IMG/VR virus record: IMGVR_UViG_3300033402_000312 | Length of the DNA stretch: 37,624 nucleotides | From: a virus | Direction: 5' to 3' (one strand) | Shown here: positions 354 through 18,068 of the stretch, one piece after another | How the letters are laid out: every line of letters begins with the position of its first letter | How positions within the stretch are numbered: the stretch's first letter is position 1 | Notes under the pieces: model-generated | The model's database searches: none | What the model was told of the DNA's origin: nothing | What the model saw: the letters and a program-made list of their open reading frames with translations, nothing else | Made by a program: the position numbers and the translations under genes

Positions 354-429
354 TGGCTGCCTCGCTAGGATTCGGACCTAGATTTGACGGTTCAGAGCCG
401 TCCGTCCTGCCAAATTAGACGACAAGGCA
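354..429 (-). tRNA. tRNA-Gln(CUG)
   Basis: TGCCTTG/CGAGGCA acceptor, G73, CCA; anticodon arm GACGG-CTCTGAA-CCGTC; atypical T-loop TCCGAAT. Confidence 0.93.
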
Positions 430-433
430 ATTT

Positions 434-510
434 TGGCTGCGGCGCTAGGGGTCGAACCTAGATTCGCGGGTTCAAGGCCCGCCGTCCTGCCTGAGTTAGA
501 CGACGCCGCA
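434..510 (-). tRNA. tRNA-Gln(UUG), C33 variant
   Basis: TGCGGCG/CGCCGCA acceptor, G73, CCA; GCGGG-CCTTGAA-CCCGC; T-loop TTCGACC. Confidence 0.9.
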
Positions 511-515
511 AAGTT

Positions 516-589
516 TGGCTGCCTCCCGTGGATTCGGACCACGATAGCGGGTTCCAAAGACCCGCGCCCTGCCGTTAGACGAGGAGGCA
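516..589 (-). tRNA. tRNA-Gln(UUG)
   Basis: TGCCTCC/GGAGGCA acceptor, G73, CCA; CGGGT-CTTTGGA-ACCCG; T-loop TCCGAAT. Confidence 0.92.
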
Positions 590-594
590 AAAAT

Positions 595-628
595 TGGAGC
601 TAGACTACTTGCTCGAAAACGCTCTAAC
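595..628 (-). ncRNA. degenerate 34-nt tRNA minihelix or tRNA-Thr remnant
   Basis: GTTAGA-N18-TCTAGC-T-CCA: a 6-bp acceptor-like stem with U73 and CCA. It is spaced like an array member and is the same length as the minihelices at 1923-1993. Confidence 0.35.
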
Positions 629-671
629 TACCCAAAAAAGTGAACTTTCAAGTCCATAAGTGAGGTACCTC

Positions 672-1373
672 ATGGACTACACATGCGCTCAATGCGAGCG
701 AACCTTTACTCCGAATCAGCCTCCAACTCACCCAGAAAATCCGATATGCAGCCGTTCATGCGCTGCAAAGTATATGCACAGAACTGGACGAGCTACATAT
801 CTGCCTAAAAAAGTATACGAATGCTTTTGGTGCCACAAAAACTTTAATGGGCATCCATACAACAAAGAACATCCGTTTTGTTCCCACTCCTGTGCGGCTA
901 CCTACAACAATAAAGCCAAAGGGGGGACTCTAAATAAACCTAACAAAGACCCCCATTGTTACCGTGGAGAAAAGACCCTGTGCTGTAAGACATGTAAGGC
1001 ACCTTCTTATGCCCAGTTTTGCTCTCACAAATGCCAGCATGAGTGGTCGCGTCAACAAAAGATAAAACATTGGCTCCAAACAGGAGAAACAGGCTGCAAA
1101 CCCGGTGGTAGCGGCAGCACCATACCCAGATGGCTCAGAGACTACATCAAAGCCGAACAGCAAGGGCTATGTGCCATTTGTCGCCTGCCGTCTGAATGGA
1201 ACGGACAATTTCTTACTCTCATTCTCGATCACATCGACGGTAACTCTTTCATCTCCTCCCGTGATAATCTCCGGTTGGTGTGCCCGAACTGCGATAGCCA
1301 ACTGCCCACCTCCAAAGGTCGCAACCGAGGCAAAGGTCGTCATTGGAGACACGTGCGTTATGCAGCAGGATAA
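672..1373 (+). CDS. HNH homing endonuclease with N-terminal Zn-ribbon repeats
   Basis: Repeated CxxC...FCSxxC modules; C-terminal CAIC...LDHIDGN...NLRLVCPNCDS HNH motif; GAGGT SD before ATG 672; lower GC; antisense inside the tRNA array. Confidence 0.9.
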   Translation: MDYTCAQCERTFTPNQPPTHPENPICSRSCAAKYMHRTGRATYLPKKVYECFWCHKNFNGHPYNKEHPFCSHSCAATYNNKAKGGTLNKPNKDPHCYRGEKTLCCKTCKAPSYAQFCSHKCQHEWSRQQKIKHWLQTGETGCKPGGSGSTIPRWLRDYIKAEQQGLCAICRLPSEWNGQFLTLILDHIDGNSFISSRDNLRLVCPNCDSQLPTSKGRNRGKGRHWRHVRYAAG

Positions 1374-1375
1374 AA

Positions 1376-1459
1376 TGGGCTGATGGGGAGACTCGAACTC
1401 CCGTGGGATTTCTCCGCCTGATTACAAATCAGGTGCAATCGCCGCTATGCGACATCAGC
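1376..1459 (-). tRNA. tRNA-Thr(UGU) with long variable arm
   Basis: GCTGATG/CATCAGC acceptor; CCTGA-TTTGTAA-TCAGG; 14-nt variable region with GGA-GAAA-TCC hairpin; T-loop TTCGAGT. Confidence 0.88.
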
Positions 1460-1466
1460 ATAATTT

Positions 1467-1541
1467 TGGAGCAAGGCATCGGGGTCGAACCGATATAGCG
1501 TGCTTACCGAGCACGTGAACTGCCTGTTGTTCTAGCCTTGC
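1467..1541 (-). tRNA. tRNA-Thr(GGU), C33 variant
   Basis: GCAAGGC/GCCTTGC acceptor, U73, CCA; CGTGC-TCGGTAA-GCACG; T-loop TTCGACC. Confidence 0.9.
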
Positions 1542-1547
1542 CGATTC

Positions 1548-1623
1548 TGGAGCCGGGTAGGAGCTATGATCTCCTCGCCTCCTGCTTACGGGGCAGGCGC
1601 TCTACCGAATGAGCTAACCCGGC
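1548..1623 (-). tRNA. tRNA-Thr(CGU), C33 and atypical T-loop
   Basis: GCCGGGT/ACCCGGC acceptor, U73, CCA; CCTGC-CCCGTAA-GCAGG; T-arm AGGAG-ATCATAG-CTCCT. Confidence 0.88.
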
Positions 1624-1631
1624 GAAAAAAT

Positions 1632-1706
1632 TGGTCCCCAAGGGAGGGGTTGAGCCTCCGTTTCACGCTTATCGGGCGTGCGTCTTAGCCGTTAGACGAC
1701 TCGGGG
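1632..1706 (-). tRNA. tRNA-Ile(GAU), C33 and atypical T-loop
   Basis: CCCCGAG/CTTGGGG acceptor (C4-G69), A73, CCA; CACGC-CCGATAA-GCGTG; T-loop CTCAACC. Confidence 0.88.
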
Positions 1707-1720
1707 AAAATCCTAGCCTG

Positions 1721-1757
1721 AAAACAAAAAGAGCCGACCTCTTCCGGGGTCGGCTCT
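1721..1757 (-). terminator. intrinsic terminator (attenuator) directly upstream of the tRNA array
   Basis: AGAGCCGACC-ccggaaga-GGTCGGCTCT followed by TTTTGTTTT. Confidence 0.9.
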
Positions 1758-1825
1758 CGCTAGCGTCCTGAAATTGCTGGGCTTGCTTAGTCTTCGAAGC
1801 CCTCAGACACGCCAACGGACCGACC
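1748..1825 (-). promoter_or_regulatory. antiterminator hairpin, mutually exclusive with the terminator
   Basis: GGTCGG-TC pairs with GAGCCGACC (terminator 5' arm). The helix continues with CGTTGGCGT/ACGCTAGCG, TCTGA/TCAGG and GGGCTT/AAGCCC. Confidence 0.8.
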
Positions 1826-1876
1826 GCGTGTAATTCGTTGCGTCGTCGTAGTTCGCGTTGTGGGTGTCTGGTTCAT
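1787..1876 (-). CDS. attenuator leader peptide MNQTPTTRTTTTQRITRGRSVGVSEGFED (29 aa)
   Basis: 8 Thr, 2 Gln and 1 Ile codon in the first 16 codons; its 3' half forms the antiterminator. Confidence 0.8.
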   Translation of the reverse strand: MNQTPTTRTTTTQRITRGRSVGVSEGFED

Positions 1877-1885
1877 GATCTTTTT

Positions 1886-1920
1886 TGGCTGGGGGCCTCC
1901 GGTTTCCCGAAAAGCCCCCA
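1886..1920 (-). ncRNA. tRNA-Gln-like minihelix (35 nt)
   Basis: TGGGGGC-[TTTTCGG-GAAA-CCGGAG]-GCCCCCA-G-CCA; U1-A72, G2-C71, G3-C70, G73. Confidence 0.75.
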
Positions 1921-1922
1921 AC

Positions 1923-1956
1923 TGGAGCCGGGACTCGGATTTCGCCGAACCCCGGC
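1923..1956 (-). ncRNA. tRNA-Thr-like minihelix (34 nt)
   Basis: GCCGGGG-TTCGG-CGAAAT-CCGAG-TCCCGGC-T-CCA; 7+5 bp; G1-C72, C2-G71, U73. Confidence 0.75.
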
Positions 1957-1959
1957 GTA

Positions 1960-1993
1960 TGGCGGGCAGACACGGATTTCGCCGTACCTGCCC
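1960..1993 (-). ncRNA. tRNA minihelix (34 nt), Ile- or Arg-like acceptor
   Basis: GGGCAGG-TACGG-CGAAAT-CCGTG-TCTGCCC-G-CCA; 7+5 bp. Confidence 0.72.
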
Positions 1994-2004
1994 ACTCATC
2001 TACA

Positions 2005-2033
2005 ATACTACTGAAAGTCCAGAAACTTGTCAA
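2005..2033 (-). promoter_or_regulatory. sigma70-type promoter of the minihelix/leader/tRNA operon
   Basis: TTGACA-17 nt-TAGTAT; predicted +1 near 1998, about 5 nt before the first minihelix. Confidence 0.75.
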
Positions 2034-2052: not shown

Positions 2053-2265
2053 TCAGGCGACTGCGGCTACGACCACGACGTTTTCGGCCTGGAGACCCTT
2101 CGGGCCCTTCACGACGTCAAACTTGACGGACTGCCCCTCGTCGAGGGACTTGTATCCGTCAGCCTGGATAGCCGAGAAATGCACGAAGACGTCCTCGCCG
2201 GACTGGCGGGTGATGAATCCGTAGCCCTTTGCTGCGTTGAACCACTTTACGGTGCCTTGTTCCAT
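2053..2265 (-). CDS. cspA: cold-shock protein (CspA family, 70 aa)
   Basis: [18 protein letters not shown] (RNP1) and DVFVHFSAI (RNP2); AAAGGA SD before ATG 2265. Confidence 0.95.
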
Positions 2266-2399: not shown

Positions 2400-3089
2400 T
2401 CAGTTCCACTTGATCTGATCTTCGTCTTTTCGAGCCGGGGCTGGACGGCTCGGCCCTACCGCTGGAGCCTCCGAGAAGATCAGTTCGGGGTCGTCGTTCT
2501 CGCTCAGTATTTTGTCAACGCCGCTCGTGACCGCGTCGAACAGGGGGTCTTGGCCCGGCTCCGGGGGGTTGAAGGGGTCGCCCTCATCGGTTTCCGCGAA
2601 CATCGCCCCGCCCGCGACCACCGAGTCTATCTCGTCGGTGATGCCGAACCCCGACCTGAGGTCGTCCTCAAGGTCGGACAAGGCCTCGGAAAGCTCGCTG
2701 CGCGTGATCGCGATCCTGTTCGACGCCTCCACGATGGGCTTGAGTTGCGCCTGGATGTCGGCGGACAGGGCATCAAACTTGGCGTTCGTCGCCACCCTGA
2801 AGCGGCTGACGATGTCGCGGATGACCAGGATCATCTCGGTCTTCCTGCTGGCTTCGGTGGCACGCGACTTGCGCGTCTTCTCGTCGTTGCACACGGGGCA
2901 GGTCGTGAACATCTCGTCGGCGGGACTTTGGTTGGCTTGGTTGGCTTGATAAGCCTCTTCCACGCCCTCTACCAAGGCAGGCGGTAATGTCCCAACCTTC
3001 TCCGGGCTGATGGAGGTGGCGTATTTCGCCCGCGCCCGCTTGTTGGCGGTGTTGTTCTTGAACTTGATTTTCTTGCTGCTTTTGCCCAT
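2400..3089 (-). CDS. hypothetical protein (229 aa; basic N-terminus, CxxC, coiled coil, acidic tail)
   Basis: GAGGTG SD before ATG 3089 (MGKSSKK). The longer track ORF overlaps the AlaRS-like gene. Confidence 0.75.
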   Translation of the reverse strand: MGKSSKKIKFKNNTANKRARAKYATSISPEKVGTLPPALVEGVEEAYQANQANQSPADEMFTTCPVCNDEKTRKSRATEASRKTEMILVIRDIVSRFRVATNAKFDALSADIQAQLKPIVEASNRIAITRSELSEALSDLEDDLRSGFGITDEIDSVVAGGAMFAETDEGDPFNPPEPGQDPLFDAVTSGVDKILSENDDPELIFSEAPAVGPSRPAPARKDEDQIKWN

Positions 3090-3115: not shown

Positions 3116-3970
3116 TCACGATTTCAATAAAACCAGTTCTTCGGGCAAAAGACCGAAAGTGTCCCACCAGAACTCGGGAGGCTTGTCGCCGTTGCGCCGG
3201 AAATGCCTGCGTCCATTGCGGATGGACTGCTCCATGCGCTTGCGCTCCTCCCCCACCCAGACCGAGAACGGGCACTCGAATTCCTGCGGGTTCAAACGCA
3301 TGAACCGGCGAAGAAGGCGGCGGCAGACGTAGCTCCGCCCCTTGTTGCCCGGCTCAACGCCCCGCTCCCTGAACACGCACAGCGTGCGGAAATGGTCGCG
3401 GGACACCGGGTCGAGGTCTTGGCGGAACAGGCTGGTCTCGTCCACGCGGCCCTTGCCCTCCATGGTCTGGAGCATGCGTTCGTAGCCGAAGCCCACGTCC
3501 ACGGAGTGCCCCATCGGGTTGACGAGGTTGCCGACCTCCAGGCCGCCCGGCGTGAAAAACTCGGAGCACCAGCCGCCCACGGTGCCGTCCGACCACACAC
3601 AGTCCGGGTCGCGGCGCACCGGGAATTCCCTCTCCCAATAGCGCTCGAAGCCCGACTCCGGGTGGACGCTGACGTGCGAGACCGGGATGCCGAGGTCGCA
3701 GATGATGTCCGTCCACATATCGCAATGGCGCTGGTAGTCGTTGGTGCCGAAGCCGAAGCTGCCGACCATCTGGAAGAAGGTCAAATGCGTGCCGTCGCCG
3801 ACCTCGCCGATGTCGTTCGTGCGGACGCAGTACTGGATGTTGCCGTGGCTGGTGCCGTCCGGCGTCTGGAATCTTGGCTTGAGTGGCTGCATCCCCGCGC
3901 TGATGAAGAGGGTCGTTGGATCGTTCTCGGGGATTATGTTGGTGCTTAGTTCAAAGGGGAGACCCGTCAT
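3116..3970 (-). CDS. alaS: truncated alanyl-tRNA synthetase (catalytic and partial tRNA-recognition domains; no editing or C-Ala domains)
   Basis: AlaRS motifs DPTTLFISAGMQ, QYCVRTNDI..VGDGTHLTFFQMVGSF, VDVGFGYERM, DHFRT...GVEPGNKGRSYVCRRLLRR; only 284 aa. Confidence 0.88.
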   Translation of the reverse strand: MTGLPFELSTNIIPENDPTTLFISAGMQPLKPRFQTPDGTSHGNIQYCVRTNDIGEVGDGTHLTFFQMVGSFGFGTNDYQRHCDMWTDIICDLGIPVSHVSVHPESGFERYWEREFPVRRDPDCVWSDGTVGGWCSEFFTPGGLEVGNLVNPMGHSVDVGFGYERMLQTMEGKGRVDETSLFRQDLDPVSRDHFRTLCVFRERGVEPGNKGRSYVCRRLLRRFMRLNPQEFECPFSVWVGEERKRMEQSIRNGRRHFRRNGDKPPEFWWDTFGLLPEELVLLKS

Positions 3971-4457: not shown

Positions 4458-4531
4458 TGGCACCCCCGATGGGATTTTTACCCATACACACGACTTTAGA
4501 GGTCGCTGCTCTTCCGTTGAGCTACGGGGGT
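4458..4531 (-). tRNA. amber suppressor tRNA(CUA) #1, Trp/Gln-like body
   Basis: ACCCCCG/CGGGGGT acceptor (A1-U72), G73, CCA; GCGAC-CTCTAAA-GTCGT; T-loop TAAAAAT. Confidence 0.88.
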
Positions 4532-4558
4532 AAACTTGTTCTTAAAAATACTAAAGAT

Positions 4559-4635
4559 TGGAGCGCCCGGTGGGGATCGAACCCACGCAGCACAAGGCTT
4601 TAGGGGCCCCGGCTCTGCCGCTGAGCTACGGGCGC
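4559..4635 (-). tRNA. amber suppressor tRNA(CUA) #2, C33
   Basis: GCGCCCG/CGGGCGC acceptor, U73, CCA; GGGGC-CCCTAAA-GCCTT; T-loop TTCGATC; TATACT -10-like box just upstream. Confidence 0.85.
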
Positions 4636-8343: not shown

Positions 8344-8361
8344 GCCCTATGATACTGCCAG

Positions 8362-8388
8362 AAACAAAAAACCCCGCCGACGCGGGGT
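8362..8388 (-). terminator. intrinsic terminator of the tmRNA gene
   Basis: ACCCCGC-GTCG-GCGGGGT followed by TTTTTGTTT. Confidence 0.88.
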
Positions 8389-8651
8389 CTTTTGCGGTGT
8401 TGAGGATCAGTCCCACCAAGGACTGTGCGTGCAGCTTTTTAGGCCGCAGCCGCAAATGCCATCTCACGAGGAGCGGCAGTTATAGTTTCCATCCTGATTA
8501 ACGAGGGCATGGTGCCTCGGGTCGCTGGCTCCGTCCTCGCATGTCCGCCGTCGAAACCAGTTCACCCCCGAAGTGGTGGAGGTGGGGGGAGTTGGACCCC
8601 CGTCCGAGCAGACTGTCTGGTGCCTTTTGCCCTCGCGGGCTTACGACCATC
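8389..8651 (-). ncRNA. ssrA: circularly permuted (two-piece) tmRNA
   Basis: Acceptor piece first (...GGACGGGGGTCCAACTCCCCCCACCTCCACCA, ending 8574), a 4-nt spacer CTTC, then the coding piece from 8569 (GGGGGTGAACTGGTTTCGACGG). G3:U70 and A73 present. ATAACT-GCC resume context; tag AAPREMAFAAAA* at 8439-8477. Confidence 0.92.
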
Positions 8652-8657
8652 CTACAC

Positions 8658-8687
8658 ATAATACCACGGAAGTCGGTTATCTGTCAA
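8658..8687 (-). promoter_or_regulatory. sigma70-type promoter of tmRNA
   Basis: TTGACA-18 nt-TATTAT with extended -10 TG. Confidence 0.75.
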
Positions 8688-10927: not shown

Positions 10928-11650
10928 TTACATGTTCCTCCTGTTCCGCATCAATTCGACTGCGGCTTTTATTTTTTCGGGGTTGTTCGCCGCCCATGCT
11001 TTGGCTTTTTTGCGGAGTTTTTGGCGTGTCTCCTCAGAACACTCCCTACCCCAAAGGGAAAAAGCTACCTTTTTGGCTATTTCAGGGTTTTGCATGTGGT
11101 GACGCCCCTCAGCAGCTAATTGTTTTAAGCTATCTGATTGTTTCTGTTTTGATTCTACTGAACGCTTATGCCCTATGTGGGCTACTTTGGATGCCGCAAA
11201 TGCGGCATCAGATGGACGCTTACCCTTACGCATAGCACTAAATTTTTCTTGCATCTTTGGGTCTTGCATAGGATTTAATCCAAGGGCAGACCTACGCAAA
11301 TGTGCTTCACTCATCTTCTTTCGGGTTTCAGGATGGACGTTTTTGGCCCTTCCACCAGACTCCAAATTATAGCCTACGCTTGGATCGGTGGCTTTAAGCT
11401 GCTTAATAAACATCTTTTCCCAGTAGTTGGCTTGATCTCTTGAAGATGCTCGTATCAAAACAGATGTTTTGAACGCTTTAGGGCTATACTTGCGGATGGC
11501 AGCGTGAAAATGCGGGCATTTTCCCTGCTTCAAATTGAATGCAGCAGAACAATGAAGTCTCCAGCGATGCTTCAAAGTGAGACTCGTTTGCCCTATATAA
11601 TATTTGTTGTTAACTGTATTTACTACTATATAAATGAGGGTTTCGCCCAT
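10928..11650 (-). CDS. GIY-YIG homing endonuclease (Seg-like, NUMOD3 repeats; 240 aa)
   Basis: LIYIVVNTVNNKYYIGQT, GYNL, HPETRKKMSEAH; AT-rich; ATG overlaps the upstream TGA. Confidence 0.9.
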   Translation of the reverse strand: MGETLIYIVVNTVNNKYYIGQTSLTLKHRWRLHCSAAFNLKQGKCPHFHAAIRKYSPKAFKTSVLIRASSRDQANYWEKMFIKQLKATDPSVGYNLESGGRAKNVHPETRKKMSEAHLRRSALGLNPMQDPKMQEKFSAMRKGKRPSDAAFAASKVAHIGHKRSVESKQKQSDSLKQLAAEGRHHMQNPEIAKKVAFSLWGRECSEETRQKLRKKAKAWAANNPEKIKAAVELMRNRRNM

Positions 11651-11895
11651 CAGCCCAGCCGCTTCATGGGGCATCCGAATTTGTGCGGAAAGGGGGTTTC
11701 GTGAATGTTGGCCACCCTGCCGCACTTGCCGCACTTGAACGCAAAGTCGCCGTCCTCGCCGTCCACCACCTCGTAGGCGAAGCCCATCAGGGCATCTTGG
11801 TTGCCGCGCTTGATTTCGGCGATCTCCTCCGGGGTGAATTCGTCGTCGAGACCATCCTCGTACTGCTCGTCAAAATCATCGAAATCGATAGCCAT
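11650..11895 (-). CDS. small acidic Zn-binding protein (81 aa)
   Basis: GAGGTG SD before MAIDFDD; CGKC...H...C. Confidence 0.75.
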   Translation of the reverse strand: MAIDFDDFDEQYEDGLDDEFTPEEIAEIKRGNQDALMGFAYEVVDGEDGDFAFKCGKCGRVANIHETPFPHKFGCPMKRLG

Positions 11896-11984: not shown

Positions 11985-12641
11985 TCAGAATGACAAAATC
12001 CAAGAAAAAATTATGTCAACTCCGGCAGGAAGTATCAGCGGAGGCAGCGTCTTGTAGTTCACGAGTACCACCGAATCCGCCGGGCCGGGAGGCGTCGCGG
12101 CGGGGTTGAAGTACGGCGCGGTCACCATGTTCGTCGGCTGCCCGCCAGCGCCCGCCAGCGTGCCGCCGCCGATGAGTCCCATCTCCCGGATGCTCTGGGT
12201 GATGTTGTCGGTGGTGGCGTTGACCGTGGTCTGGAAGTCCACCATTGTGCTGAACTGGTTCACCGGATTGAAGTTGGCATCGACGTAGTTGATGCGCGAA
12301 AGGGGCTTGCGCAGGAACTCGGAGATGAGCGCGGTCTGGATCGGGGAAGGGTCGGGCTGCGTCTCCGGTGCCCAGCTAGGCGAGCCAGCGCCGATTGCCA
12401 AGCCCCATATGCCGTACAGCGGGTCTGCCGACACGCCTGCCTCGCCGAGGGTGTAGGGGACAGCCGGGGCGTTCGGGAGGGCGTTCGCGCAAAGCCTCGC
12501 GAACAGCCAGCGGACGACGTTGGTGATTATATTTTTCTGTTGAAACAAAACCTCTCCGGTGTCAGACCGAAATATTCGGAGATACCCTGTGTCAATAGGC
12601 AATGTCTGCGTGTAAAATCCATCCCTAAAGTTAAGTTGCAT
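11985..12641 (-). CDS. putative baseplate/tail-fibre attachment protein (218 aa)
   Basis: NIITN...LAIGAG...QTALISE.RKP...IREMGLIGG...NYKT pattern resembles myovirus tail-collar/baseplate proteins; position at the end of the baseplate cluster. Confidence 0.65.
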   Translation of the reverse strand: MQLNFRDGFYTQTLPIDTGYLRIFRSDTGEVLFQQKNIITNVVRWLFARLCANALPNAPAVPYTLGEAGVSADPLYGIWGLAIGAGSPSWAPETQPDPSPIQTALISEFLRKPLSRINYVDANFNPVNQFSTMVDFQTTVNATTDNITQSIREMGLIGGGTLAGAGGQPTNMVTAPYFNPAATPPGPADSVVLVNYKTLPPLILPAGVDIIFSWILSF

Positions 12642-13326
12642 TAGAGCCTCTGTTTTGTCTTTGTAAAGCTGCTTTTTTAAGATTCGCCTTCAAAATAGCA
12701 AAGCACTCCGGTCGCTGGGCACGAAGTTTCGCAGCAACACTTAAATTCCGTTTGTGCTTGTCTGAAAATACCCGACCTTTTAGTGCTTGGGACAGCTTCG
12801 GTACTTTCTTTCCAAGTTTCGCAGCAGAAATCCGTTGCCTAGTTTCAAGCGTAGGTTTTTTACCTTTGTGAGCCTTGGATAACAATGCACGGGTTTCAGC
12901 GGTGGCTTTTTTGCCCAGATGCGCTTTCCGATTTTTTTGATTTGATTCATTCGAATGATGACGACCGAACATCGGATGCGCTGCTCCATGAAGGGCTTTT
13001 TCACCGTAACGTGGGTTAAGTTTTCCGGGGGACGCTCCATCGCCGCCCAACGTCATGTTGTAACCGTTTTCCGGCTTGTGAGACTGGTGCAGGACAATAA
13101 AGAAAGTCTCCATCGCATCAAGTTCATCCTTGGTTTTGGCTTGATGAATTACCTCGACCCTAAAGGCATCTGGCCCGTATTTGCGAATAGCATTAGAGAG
13201 GTACAACTTGCTGCCTTTACTTGCGGCATGAACATGCGCTTTCCAACGATCTTCTACCCTAGCCCGCATCCACTTACCGATGTAGACTTTGCCGTTCACC
13301 GAATTTGTGACTTTGTACACGACCAT
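12631..13326 (-). CDS. GIY-YIG homing endonuclease (NUMOD3 repeats; 231 aa)
   Basis: VVYKVTNSVNGKVYIGK, GYNMTLGGDG, HPMFGRHHS; AT-rich. Confidence 0.9.
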   Translation of the reverse strand: MVVYKVTNSVNGKVYIGKWMRARVEDRWKAHVHAASKGSKLYLSNAIRKYGPDAFRVEVIHQAKTKDELDAMETFFIVLHQSHKPENGYNMTLGGDGASPGKLNPRYGEKALHGAAHPMFGRHHSNESNQKNRKAHLGKKATAETRALLSKAHKGKKPTLETRQRISAAKLGKKVPKLSQALKGRVFSDKHKRNLSVAAKLRAQRPECFAILKANLKKAALQRQNRGSNAT

Positions 13327-14800: not shown

Positions 14801-17269
14801 TTAGTAAAGCCCGAAAATGAACAACTCGTCGCCACCGGACAGTTCCCAAACTTGATCCAACCTTGGGGCCACAAGACCGTACAGGTGGCTCGGGTCAACG
14901 TTTCCGACCTCCCCGGTCGGGGGCGGCGGGGTGATTCCGGTCCCCAAGTTCAGGATTTGCACCCAGCCAGCCGGGGCGCTGAACGTGTTAGCGCCGATGT
15001 TGCGCCATGCCACGTTGCCGTCAGGAGTGCCGCCGTTGAGCGACAAATTCCAGCTTGGCTTGGAGTTCTGCGACACGCCAGCGTTCAGCGCAAGCTGCTG
15101 GTTGCCGTTCGGGTCCACCACGATCTGGCCGAGGAACACCGTTCCGCCCGGAACCCAGCTTGATCCGATGGCTATGCTGGAAAGGTTGCTGTTGATCGGC
15201 GGGTTCCCGAGCACATAGACGCCGTTGCTGAGGTAATAGGCGGACTGGAGCGTCGGCGAAAGCATGCCAGCATTGGCTTGAATGCTGGGCGTCTGGATCG
15301 CCACGTCAGCGGTGTTCGTGACTTGGAACGTGGACACCTCGGCGGTGCCGGAGTCAAATGGGTTAGAAAAATCCGTCCCGGCGAAATTCGCCGTGAAGCT
15401 GGTGGGCGTCGCCGAAAGTACAACCAAAGTCTGCCCATTCAGGAACGGCTCGGCTGTGTTGGCAAACGTTACCAGCATGCCGGGCTTGAAACTGTTTGCC
15501 GTTGTCACGGTAAGGACGTTTGAACTGAGTTGGGTCGCCCGCACGTTGGCGACGATGTTGTGCACGTCATGGATCGGGGCGGTGACGTTGAGTGCAGCCG
15601 CGCTGAATCCCGCGACGGTGACATACTCGCCCTCATGGAGGAACTGTGTCGTCGGCACGTAGGTGTACGTGGCGTTCGTGCCGTCCGACATGCCGTTGAG
15701 GATGTTGACAAACACGGTCGGGAGCGCCTGCCACTGCGAAGGCGTAAGCTGGGCGGAAAGCTTCCTGCCGTACGCCGCGACGGTCGTCTTTGGGTTCGCG
15801 GGATTGAGCGGGATCGGGTTGCCTTGCCCGTCCTTCGCCACGGTGCCGTCCGCGTTGAGCTTGAAGTTGGAGAGGGGGGCGATCCACAGCATGGGCCCAT
15901 ATGGCGGCTGCTCTATTTGCTGCACGAAGATGCGCAGCGTGTCCGTCATGCCTGACGGCACGGAGTCGCAAGGCACGCAGCAAAGGTTCGTGTAAAGCTG
16001 CTGGTAAAGCGCACGCCATGCCGAGTTGAGAGCGTTGAACTGAACGGTAGTAATGTCAGCAGGCAGGCCGAACGTCGCCGTTCCTGTGGCTTCCGCCTGC
16101 GCTGGGTAGTTCGGGTGCGCAAAGCTTGCCGTGAACGAGTTGCCTGACACGGAAGTCACCGTGAGGGGCACGCCGTTCAGGAACGTCGAGACCCCAAGGT
16201 TGATGAGCGTGACAACCGTGCCAGCCGACAGCGGGACGGCAAAGCTGAGGTTGACCGTAAGCGTGTTGAACGACACGGAGGTGCTTACCACAGCCGGGGA
16301 AACCCCAGTCCACGTCAATTGATTGTCTCCGGTTGCGGCTCCGACCAGGTTGCCGTGCGCATCCAAAACCGCGCCAACGGTGCTCCACGGCGGCTGCACG
16401 ATGCCGCTGGTATTGGGGTACATGCCGATGCCGGTCACGATTTGGAAGTTGCCGTTGGAGTCCCGCAGCAGGCTGCCCAGCGGGTACACGGTGGTCTTCT
16501 TCCAGTACAATGCCGGGTTGATAGCCGTGTATCCCGTGAATTGGAAGAAAGCCTGCTCATAGGCCGGGAGCAGCGCGAACTGCTGCTGCGTCACGTTCTG
16601 CGGGCTGACTATGCACTGCAAGTCCTCGCCCTCGCCGAAGACCGTCGTGAACTCAAGCCCGACGTGCGCTGGCTTGGCGAGCGCGATGGCGTTGTAGAGG
16701 CTCTGGACGATGGTCTGAAGCTGGAGCAGCGAGGTGATCGTCGTCAGGGGGTTCGACCCCGCCCCGCCGACCTGCACGGCCACGCTGATCGCGTTGCGGT
16801 CGGACTGGTCGTAGACTCCGTTCCCGATCAGCTTGTAAAGCTCCACGACGTTGACGGAAATCCCCGTGTACGCAAGGATGACGTCGTGGATCGCCTTGAC
16901 AGTCGTCCCCTCTTGGTACGCGGAAATAAGCTCGACGAGCATCTGCTTGTACTGCGTGTCGAACTGCCCCAGCGCGGGCCAGTTGGACGAGATGTACAGC
17001 GGCGCTGCCCAGCGGCGACGGATGTCCGGGGGCGTCAGCAGGCTCGGGTCTTTGTTGACGAGGTCGTAGGAGTAGTCGTAGTCCAGCTTTGCAAGCTCGA
17101 TTGCCAGCGCCCTGACGAAGTTTCCCCAGATGCTTTGGTCGTTGCGTGTTGAGTAAAAATCCGCGACCGCCTGTAGTAAACTGTTCAGCCGGGCGTCTTC
17201 GTACCTCAACAGCGATTCACGGTTACGAAGGTATAGAAGGTCTGGGTTATTGTTGGGCGCACTAGCCAT
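14801..17269 (-). CDS. baseplate wedge/tail protein (P2 gpI-like N-terminus plus beta-repeat domains; 822 aa)
   Basis: YKQMLVELISAYQEGTT.KAI..VI..YTG and LAKPAHV motifs; follows the gpJ-like gene; start MASAPNN. Confidence 0.7.
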   Translation of the reverse strand: MASAPNNNPDLLYLRNRESLLRYEDARLNSLLQAVADFYSTRNDQSIWGNFVRALAIELAKLDYDYSYDLVNKDPSLLTPPDIRRRWAAPLYISSNWPALGQFDTQYKQMLVELISAYQEGTTVKAIHDVILAYTGISVNVVELYKLIGNGVYDQSDRNAISVAVQVGGAGSNPLTTITSLLQLQTIVQSLYNAIALAKPAHVGLEFTTVFGEGEDLQCIVSPQNVTQQQFALLPAYEQAFFQFTGYTAINPALYWKKTTVYPLGSLLRDSNGNFQIVTGIGMYPNTSGIVQPPWSTVGAVLDAHGNLVGAATGDNQLTWTGVSPAVVSTSVSFNTLTVNLSFAVPLSAGTVVTLINLGVSTFLNGVPLTVTSVSGNSFTASFAHPNYPAQAEATGTATFGLPADITTVQFNALNSAWRALYQQLYTNLCCVPCDSVPSGMTDTLRIFVQQIEQPPYGPMLWIAPLSNFKLNADGTVAKDGQGNPIPLNPANPKTTVAAYGRKLSAQLTPSQWQALPTVFVNILNGMSDGTNATYTYVPTTQFLHEGEYVTVAGFSAAALNVTAPIHDVHNIVANVRATQLSSNVLTVTTANSFKPGMLVTFANTAEPFLNGQTLVVLSATPTSFTANFAGTDFSNPFDSGTAEVSTFQVTNTADVAIQTPSIQANAGMLSPTLQSAYYLSNGVYVLGNPPINSNLSSIAIGSSWVPGGTVFLGQIVVDPNGNQQLALNAGVSQNSKPSWNLSLNGGTPDGNVAWRNIGANTFSAPAGWVQILNLGTGITPPPPTGEVGNVDPSHLYGLVAPRLDQVWELSGGDELFIFGLY

Positions 17270-18068
17270 TGGACGTCCTCTTTGCCAGTCGGCACTCAAC
17301 CATGTAACGGATGTGTTCCGCAGAGACACCACGCTTTTTGGCAGCTTCGCTCATGCGCTTCTTGGTCTCTTCGGTGCGCTTTTTGCCCCTCAGAGCGATG
17401 GAGCGTTTTTGCAATGTTTCAGCGGATGGATGTCTGCCGGTAAGAGCTTCGCTCATCTTTCTACGGGATTCTTCAGAATGCCTTCTGCCAAAAAACGGAT
17501 TGGATTTCCCGGCTATTGCTTTTCTAACCGACTCGCTGATTTTCTTCTTGACATCTTCCGTCACATGTTTTCCCAACATGTGACGGGAGGAACGTTCGCT
17601 ACGTATTTGGCGTTCTTCCTCTGACTGTTTTCGACCGAGATTATATTGGTTACCTACGTGAACTCGTGTACGCTGAAACACAATTTTCGGGTCTTGTTTC
17701 TTACCTAATTTAGCAACACGCATTTTCATTCGGTCTTCTAAACTACGCTTTTTTCCGCGCCAATAATCAGCACCCTCTCCGCCCGATGTTAGGTTGTAGC
17801 CAAATTGATGGTCATTAGCTCTGTATTTGGTGATGTAAAATTTTTCTTGAGCAGAAAGGTCTTCTTTAGAAGATGCGTAACCAGATAAAAGACAAATTTC
17901 AAAGGCGTTCCTTCCGTGCATTCGTATAGCATTGTACAAATATGGGCAATAGTTCTTGCCCGCAAGAGCGAACTTAAAATGCTCATTTTCCCGTAGCCCA
18001 AAACGGCGAAAACTTTTGCCGACGTAAATCTTACCGTCCAGCTTGTTAACAATGGTGTAAATGTGCAT
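17262..18068 (-). CDS. GIY-YIG homing endonuclease (NUMOD3 repeats; 268 aa)
   Basis: HIYTIVNKLDGKIYVGKS, GYNLTSGGEG, NPFFGRRHSEESRRKMS. Confidence 0.9.
   Translation of the reverse strand: MHIYTIVNKLDGKIYVGKSFRRFGLRENEHFKFALAGKNYCPYLYNAIRMHGRNAFEICLLSGYASSKEDLSAQEKFYITKYRANDHQFGYNLTSGGEGADYWRGKKRSLEDRMKMRVAKLGKKQDPKIVFQRTRVHVGNQYNLGRKQSEEERQIRSERSSRHMLGKHVTEDVKKKISESVRKAIAGKSNPFFGRRHSEESRRKMSEALTGRHPSAETLQKRSIALRGKKRTEETKKRMSEAAKKRGVSAEHIRYMVECRLAKRTSNG

Follow-up and report, generated by a model that had tools for sequence, protein, structure and literature searches.

A putative ribosome-coupled attenuator ahead of the Ile/Thr/Gln tRNA genes of a phage and its relatives

The viral sequence IMGVR_UViG_3300033402_000312 (37,624 nt; hereafter the window, meaning the whole stretch of DNA that was analysed) carries on its minus strand a unit of transfer RNA (tRNA) genes for Ile, Thr and Gln, preceded by a short leader open reading frame (ORF) and an intrinsic terminator. 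At the head of the unit is a sigma70-type promoter, TTGACA-17-TAGTAT (2005–2033), which is kept in homologous loci and which a first-pass annotation of the window had placed at the same position. Three tandem hairpins, described below, lie between the promoter and the leader ORF. The ORF has 29 codons (1787–1876; ATG at 1876, TAA at 1787), reads as first quoted, is A-rich 5′ of the ATG and has no Shine–Dalgarno sequence. It is followed by the 3:4 terminator (1721–1758), an 11 bp hairpin (1758–1729; −20.8 kcal/mol) with a U tract (1730–1721), as strong as had been claimed. Only 14 nt separate the terminator from the first tRNA gene, and no promoter was found in this gap.

The array opens with tRNA-Ile(GAU) (1632–1706), a C33 variant whose T loop departs from the standard; ARAGORN at default settings missed it and Rfam detected it (51 bits). 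It continues with tRNA-Thr(CGU) (1548–1623) and tRNA-Thr(GGU) (1467–1541), both with C33, and with tRNA-Thr(UGU) (1377–1459), the 3′ end of which lacks a standard N73-CCA. Some 790 nt away, beyond an HNH endonuclease gene that is inserted antisense within the array (660–1373, plus strand), is not at the same place in the homologous loci L001, L006 and L025 and had gone unmentioned in the first-pass annotation, a tRNA search located tRNA-Gln(UUG) (516–589), a C33 variant of tRNA-Gln(UUG) (434–510) and tRNA-Gln(CUG) (354–429). All seven identities were verified as first assigned. A short stretch with a Thr-tRNA-like 3′ end (GCTCCA; 597–640, minus strand) just before the first Gln gene is possibly a remnant of the HNH insertion.

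Codons 2–16 of the leader, the putative sensor (1829–1873), specify eight Thr, two Gln, one Ile, two Arg, one Asn and one Pro. Thr, Gln and Ile make up 11 of these 15 codons, against 19.8 % in the long ORFs of the window (binomial P ~1e-5, for a residue set dictated by the array and a single ORF chosen after the fact). The claim that every anticodon of the array has a cognate leader codon held overall, with the reservation that recognition of AUU by GAU and of ACU by GGU depends on wobble; AUC and ACC are absent from the window leader.

Folding predicted three alternative hairpins: a 1:2 protector, or anti-antiterminator (1804–1870), a 2:3 antiterminator (1745–1828) and the terminator. The free full-length transcript folded as the 1:2 hairpin plus the terminator. 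The nascent chain up to the terminator loop formed instead the antiterminator (−42 kcal/mol), in which GGUCGG of codons 18–19, a copy of sequence in the terminator 3′ arm, pairs with the 5′ arm. The antiterminator begins at codon 17–18, in line with the earlier placement from about codon 18 onwards. Its stability combined with sequestration of the terminator arm was equalled in 2 of 1000 dinucleotide-shuffled leaders; the 6-mer shared by leader and terminator 3′ arm was not significant alone (80 of 1000 shuffles). When all RNA behind the leading edge of the ribosome was treated as blocked, the terminator arm stayed sequestered for A-site codons 2–15 (footprint +12) or 2–14 (footprint +15) and was freed afterwards. 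An initial footprint model that let the 1:2 hairpin close around the ribosome was sterically doubtful and was replaced. The first-pass annotation had cautioned that stalls at Ile15 and Thr16 may already occlude the antiterminator; Thr16 does lie outside the predicted sensing window, and Ile15 is borderline, at its edge.

Neighbour-protein and pattern searches brought together 16 distinct leader–terminator sequences, 15 in addition to that of the window. In all 16, tRNA-Ile(GAU) is the first gene after the terminator, and on every contig that extends far enough Thr and Gln genes come next. Pairing in the terminator is 100 % across the homologs, with three pairs changed on both sides, and the antiterminator core is 92.7 % paired, with four such pairs. 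Across codons 9–16, the region left free by the leader search pattern, changes are synonymous or exchange only Thr, Gln, Ile and Arg (one homolog, L007, has Ile at codon 9), and the ORFs remain open at 27–31 codons. The phage-specific neighbour protein had no match in the viral contig collection searched, a search of INPHARED returned only tRNA-level or unrelated matches, and the leader pattern was not found in the genome contig collection searched.

The correspondence between leader and array extends to other tRNAs. IMG/VR rates two relatives, of 332 and 463 kb, as complete. G003 and G002, two related phages with near-complete sequences, carry six and four tRNA arrays with leaders, respectively, grouped as Ser; Trp/His/Arg/Asn/Lys; Ile/Thr/Gln; Val/Gly/Ala/Asp/Cys/Glu; Leu/Tyr; and Pro/Met/Phe. 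Ahead of each array are a promoter-like site and a short ORF in which the residues of that array are frequent, and all leader types except Pro/Met/Phe have a clear terminator. Of the 720 possible pairings of leaders with arrays in G003, and of the 24 in G002, the true one had the best score, with the Pro/Met/Phe windows delimited by eye; leader codons thus covary with array anticodons, as the first-pass annotation had proposed to look for. All six Ser codons and a single UUA occur in the Ser leader of G003, the array of which holds four Ser tRNAs and tRNA-Leu(UAA). The six G003 leaders together use 53 of the 61 sense codons; about 50 would be expected from 105 uniform draws, so this was not counted as evidence. 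In the Ile/Thr/Gln, Leu/Tyr, Val-group and Arg-group leaders, modelled sequestration ends at or just past the last cognate codon; in the Ser leader it declines more gradually.

These patterns bear on the possibility that the terminator is controlled by a protein or by temperature, with CspA or another factor melting it and the ORF being incidental. A cspA cold-shock gene lies directly upstream of the unit (2053–2265, minus strand in the window), a position conserved in most homologs, E. coli CspA is an antiterminator, and a leader without a Shine–Dalgarno sequence would suit such a scheme. Control of this kind would nevertheless leave unexplained why the leader residues track the identity of six arrays and why the switch boundary falls at the end of the cognate run, and no cspA end occurs within the 175 nt upstream of the Ile/Thr/Gln leaders of G002 and G003. 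We therefore regard it as very improbable.

Taken together, the conserved architecture, the covariation, the leader/array matching, the switch geometry and the lack of an intervening promoter uphold the interpretation first put forward for this locus, and we consider it very likely, on sequence grounds, that a ribosome-coupled transcription attenuator controls the phage Ile/Thr/Gln tRNA genes. The locus has the features of the leader-peptide attenuator class: a short ORF of control codons, a terminator before the first gene, an overlapping antiterminator that starts within the ORF, control codons placed so as to free the antiterminator (codons 2–14), and codons that match the downstream genes. 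In the proposed mechanism, host RNA polymerase would start near 1998 and a ribosome would translate the leader. With fast decoding of Thr, Gln and Ile codons, the ribosome would cover or pass codons 17–25, the 1:2 hairpin would re-form behind it, the terminator would fold and transcription would stop at about 1722. A ribosome waiting at codons 2–14, and perhaps 15, would allow GGUCGG to pair with the terminator 5′ arm, so that polymerase would enter the tRNA genes. As the output is the very molecule sensed, the circuit would form a negative-feedback loop on Ile/Thr/Gln decoding capacity.

A number of observations weigh against this interpretation. On the full-length transcript at equilibrium the terminator prevails at every ribosome position (P 0.87–1.0), so that the switch must be kinetic; kinetic switching is inferred here from modelled nascent-chain folds only. 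A kinetic decision is usual for attenuators. Ile15 is sensed fully only under the shorter (+12) footprint. The 1:2 hairpin is 90.5 % paired in the homologs and shows no covariation, its 5′ side being fixed by the search pattern, and the relatedness of the homologs means that the counts of changed pairs overstate the number of independent events. CGA (Arg) at leader codons 8 and 14 has no matching tRNA in the window array, and the leader ORF would have to be translated without a Shine–Dalgarno sequence. The position of the Gln genes beyond the antisense HNH gene makes their coupling to the leader less sure in the window allele. Finally, the Pro/Met/Phe leaders (L026:1369 and L034:6142, oriented) match their own arrays and lack a clear U-tailed terminator; they are possibly Rho-dependent or act through another output.

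A stalled ribosome cannot distinguish a missing tRNA from an uncharged one, so that what trips the leader has to be judged from other evidence. We consider loss or inactivation of host tRNAs the most sensible trigger, and a somewhat more probable one than not when set against plain amino-acid starvation, because extra tRNA cures a loss of tRNA and not a lack of amino acid. The tRNA genes themselves are unusual: four in the window have C33 rather than U33 (1632–1706, 1548–1623, 1467–1541 and 434–510), and two have odd T loops. The C33 variant of tRNA-Ile(GAU) is present in most homologs, usually beside a canonical copy, which the window lacks, and C33-type anticodon loops were not seen in the six host Ile, Thr and Gln tRNAs checked. 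In phage T5, a tRNA-Lys with changes in the anticodon stem–loop resists a host nuclease (PMC11464382), and by analogy an anti-defence trigger is plausible. The same switch could have evolved, as in thrL, to sense starvation or slow charging, with extra tRNA capturing the limiting amino acid and any response to tRNA destruction being incidental. This is a variant of the attenuator interpretation that competes on the trigger only; known leader-peptide attenuators sense amino-acid supply, a host attenuator of similar build controls shikimate kinase (see below), and the two causes look alike to a stalled ribosome. We nevertheless see starvation as a possible but rather unlikely trigger, given that more tRNA would not cure a lack of amino acid, that several codons of a family occur in the leaders, which would be expected if individual isoacceptors were sensed, and that many array tRNAs have altered anticodon loops comparable with that of the nuclease-resistant T5 tRNA. 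A third suggestion, late demand from Thr- and Gln-rich virion proteins, is weak: large virion-like proteins contain 12–13 % Thr and an ordinary proportion of Gln (~5 %), and it is weakened further by the finding that the relatives gate tRNAs for all 20 amino acids.

The three hairpins upstream of the leader resemble tRNA minihelices, each having a 12 bp helix, a discriminator base and CCA. The first (1960–1993, minus strand as are all three) has an Ile-like acceptor end (GGGC, with A73 in homologs and G73 here), the second (1923–1956) a Thr-like end (G1-C72, C2-G71, U73) and the third (1886–1920) a Gln-like end (U1-A72, G2-C71, G3-C70, G73). When the 37.6 kb window was scanned for a 12 bp helix followed by N-CCA, exactly these three came up, arranged in tandem at 1993–1886; 803 kb of host sequence gave 11. 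Because pairing and CCA were built into the scan, the informative features are the fixed place and the class-specific ends. Fifteen distinct 34 nt copies are 97.2 % paired, with 11 of the 12 pairs changed on both sides and CCA invariant; the homologs carry from none to three each. In most copies the ends match the first four pairs and the discriminator of host tRNA-Ile(GAU), tRNA-Thr(CGU) and tRNA-Gln(UUG), and the order Ile, Thr, Gln is that of the array. The loops are A-rich, of 6–7 nt, and depart from the canonical 7 nt T loop (UUCRA). The minihelix pattern had no match in the viral contig collection scanned. We also considered these 5′ hairpins as boxB-like or stabilizing elements, and dropped this in favour of the minihelix reading, which fits better.

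The minihelices lie before the terminator and therefore would be made constitutively; they are absent from G002 and G003, and the switch therefore does not need them. Our leading guess, held with less than even confidence, is that processing turns them into decoys or substrates for enzymes with Ile, Thr and Gln acceptor ends as their targets; alternatively, they may be relics, or sites at which processing yields an mRNA with a short leader. They share with synthetic tRNA minihelices, which model the acceptor and T stems, the 12 bp helix, discriminator, CCA and acceptor identity pairs, and differ in being natural, genomic, tandem, matched to the downstream array and without the UUCRA loop consensus. 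In the literature searched, judged mostly by titles and abstracts and with few subscription papers covered, we found no precedent for natural phage minihelices; such minihelices, cognate to the array whose transcript they share, would add another new element. Other CCA-ended minihelix-like hairpins occur in or after tRNA arrays at L004:9661–9694 and L029:2102–2136 (both plus strand).

The window, from a soil or peat phage, appears to be a fragment of a very large genome: it encodes a baseplate J-like protein, Ig-domain proteins and several homing endonucleases. Its host is probably a member of the Acidobacteria, since the closest relatives of CspA are overwhelmingly from Acidobacteriota/Terriglobia. 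None of the 40 tRNA loci of one acidobacterial chromosome had such a leader–terminator. A covariance model of the phage leaders hit one host locus in 121 genomes (L123:1505–1670; genome-wide E 0.0014), where the shikimate kinase gene aroK is preceded by a terminator and by a leader that contains Phe, Tyr and Trp codons, again without a Shine–Dalgarno sequence. In 5 + 121 genomes of Acidobacteria this RNA model matched the aroK locus alone, with no Thr/Ile/Gln-type leader among its hits, and none was found at the host thrS, homoserine dehydrogenase or ilvD loci. The aroK attenuator belongs to the probable host group and shares with the phage leaders a short 5′ end and a similar region 3 and terminator; it differs in that its output is a biosynthetic enzyme, it is a single locus and its modelled switch is less sharp. 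The host group thus appears to use leader-peptide attenuation, and the phage scaffold may, on the basis of this one locus, derive from a host attenuator. Such an origin could also mean that the phage unit is a captured amino-acid attenuator that now persists as a relic or a leaky brake on tRNA dosage. We judge this very unlikely: no Thr/Ile/Gln counterpart was found at the host loci and in the 121 genomes just mentioned, ongoing selection is needed to keep six leaders of different codon content matched to six arrays, and the covariation has been maintained.

The thrL (Thr and Ile) and ilvGMEDA (Ile, Leu and Val) leaders combine runs of control codons with 1:2, 2:3 and 3:4 hairpins and an intrinsic terminator, the last control codons lying near the antiterminator. 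The phage leader resembles them in its short ORF with control-codon runs, its three predicted alternative hairpins, its terminator layout and the nearness of its last control codons to the antiterminator; it differs in that tRNAs are regulated, so that input equals output, that it is phage-borne, and that the relatives divide the genetic code among six modules. No Rfam leader family matched the window leader region and, with a tRNA output, the attenuator is by its sequence not a member of the biosynthetic or synthetase leader families (thrL, ilvL, hisL, trpL and pheM). Synthetase attenuators such as E. coli pheM-pheST and the Bacillus hisS* leader (PMC2965389) likewise provide ribosome-read feedback on the supply of charged tRNA; they are chromosomal, and their output is an enzyme mRNA controlled through one amino acid per leader.

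T-box riboswitches also make antitermination dependent on tRNA status, and a T-box-like leader RNA that binds tRNA directly, without translation, would account for the codon/anticodon matching and for tRNA-like elements in the 5′ region. There was, however, no T-box match (stem I specifier loop, antiterminator bulge) or other Rfam match here, the in-frame AUG and stop are conserved and the geometry suits a ribosome footprint, so that we consider direct binding extremely unlikely. Phage rescue tRNAs, such as the T5 tRNA-Lys that acts against PARIS (PMC11464382), are comparable in their altered anticodon stem–loops and, putatively for the window tRNAs, in being able to replace destroyed host tRNAs; the part of that report consulted describes no sensing or conditional transcription.

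The claim that no attenuator of tRNA genes had been described was consistent with our literature search, which, within the limits given above, yielded no precedent. A broad attenuator survey sought terminators upstream of genes and makes no mention of tRNA genes or phage (PMC2965389). Phage phiCbK has a 45 aa ORF ahead of a terminator and tRNA array; the match is only partial, and the model showed no switch for it. The proposed mechanism is a known one, leader-peptide attenuation, with a new target, tRNA genes.

The purpose of phage tRNA arrays has long been debated, with codon bias, compensation for host tRNA decay and counter-defence all proposed. A sensor for each array makes the question testable, since the pressure that the tRNAs answer is whatever sets off the leader in the course of an infection. 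The device would carry attenuation, familiar from textbooks as a control of enzyme operons, over to genes for stable RNAs in the form of a closed feedback loop, and each leader would be a ready-made reporter of decoding capacity for one codon family. More tentatively, we speculate that Acidobacteria jumbo phages possess a genetic-code-wide tRNA homeostat, in which six leaders report destroyed or inactivated host tRNAs and each induces the matching block, some of it with altered anticodon loops, while in this clade constitutive Ile, Thr and Gln minihelices serve as decoys for toxins that attack acceptor ends. If both parts of this doubtful scheme were true, it would amount to an inducible, RNA-only counter-defence.

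The window and its relatives carry further translation-related features. Two tRNAs with the anticodon CUA, resembling amber suppressors, lie at 4458–4635 (minus strand) in a cluster that is conserved in relatives (L001, L004, L029 and L032); in neither the window nor the relatives do clusters holding such tRNAs have a leader–terminator. Amber recoding is unlikely, as TAG is the stop codon of 3 of 15 long ORFs read with translation table 11. A permuted, two-piece transfer-messenger RNA (tmRNA) with its own promoter and terminator lies at 8348–8667 (minus strand) and is also present in L001. A truncated alanyl-tRNA synthetase of 284 aa, comprising the N-terminal part, is encoded at 3116–3970 (minus strand), and is near the array in several homologs. 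Inside the Ile/Thr array of L001 (11597–11750) and L004 (8407–8540, plus strand) is an RNA of 125–155 nt with a G3:U70 Ala-like acceptor, a T arm and CCA; it had no Rfam match at the gathering score and resembles the tRNA-like domain of tmRNA with an insert. The protein encoded at 2400–3089 (P0001) is also recorded on a contig of 894,233 nt, a length that could reflect a very large genome or a doubling in the assembly. Genes for GIY-YIG or other homing endonucleases are located among virion-like genes at 10928–11734, 12631–13326 and 17262–18068 (minus strand).

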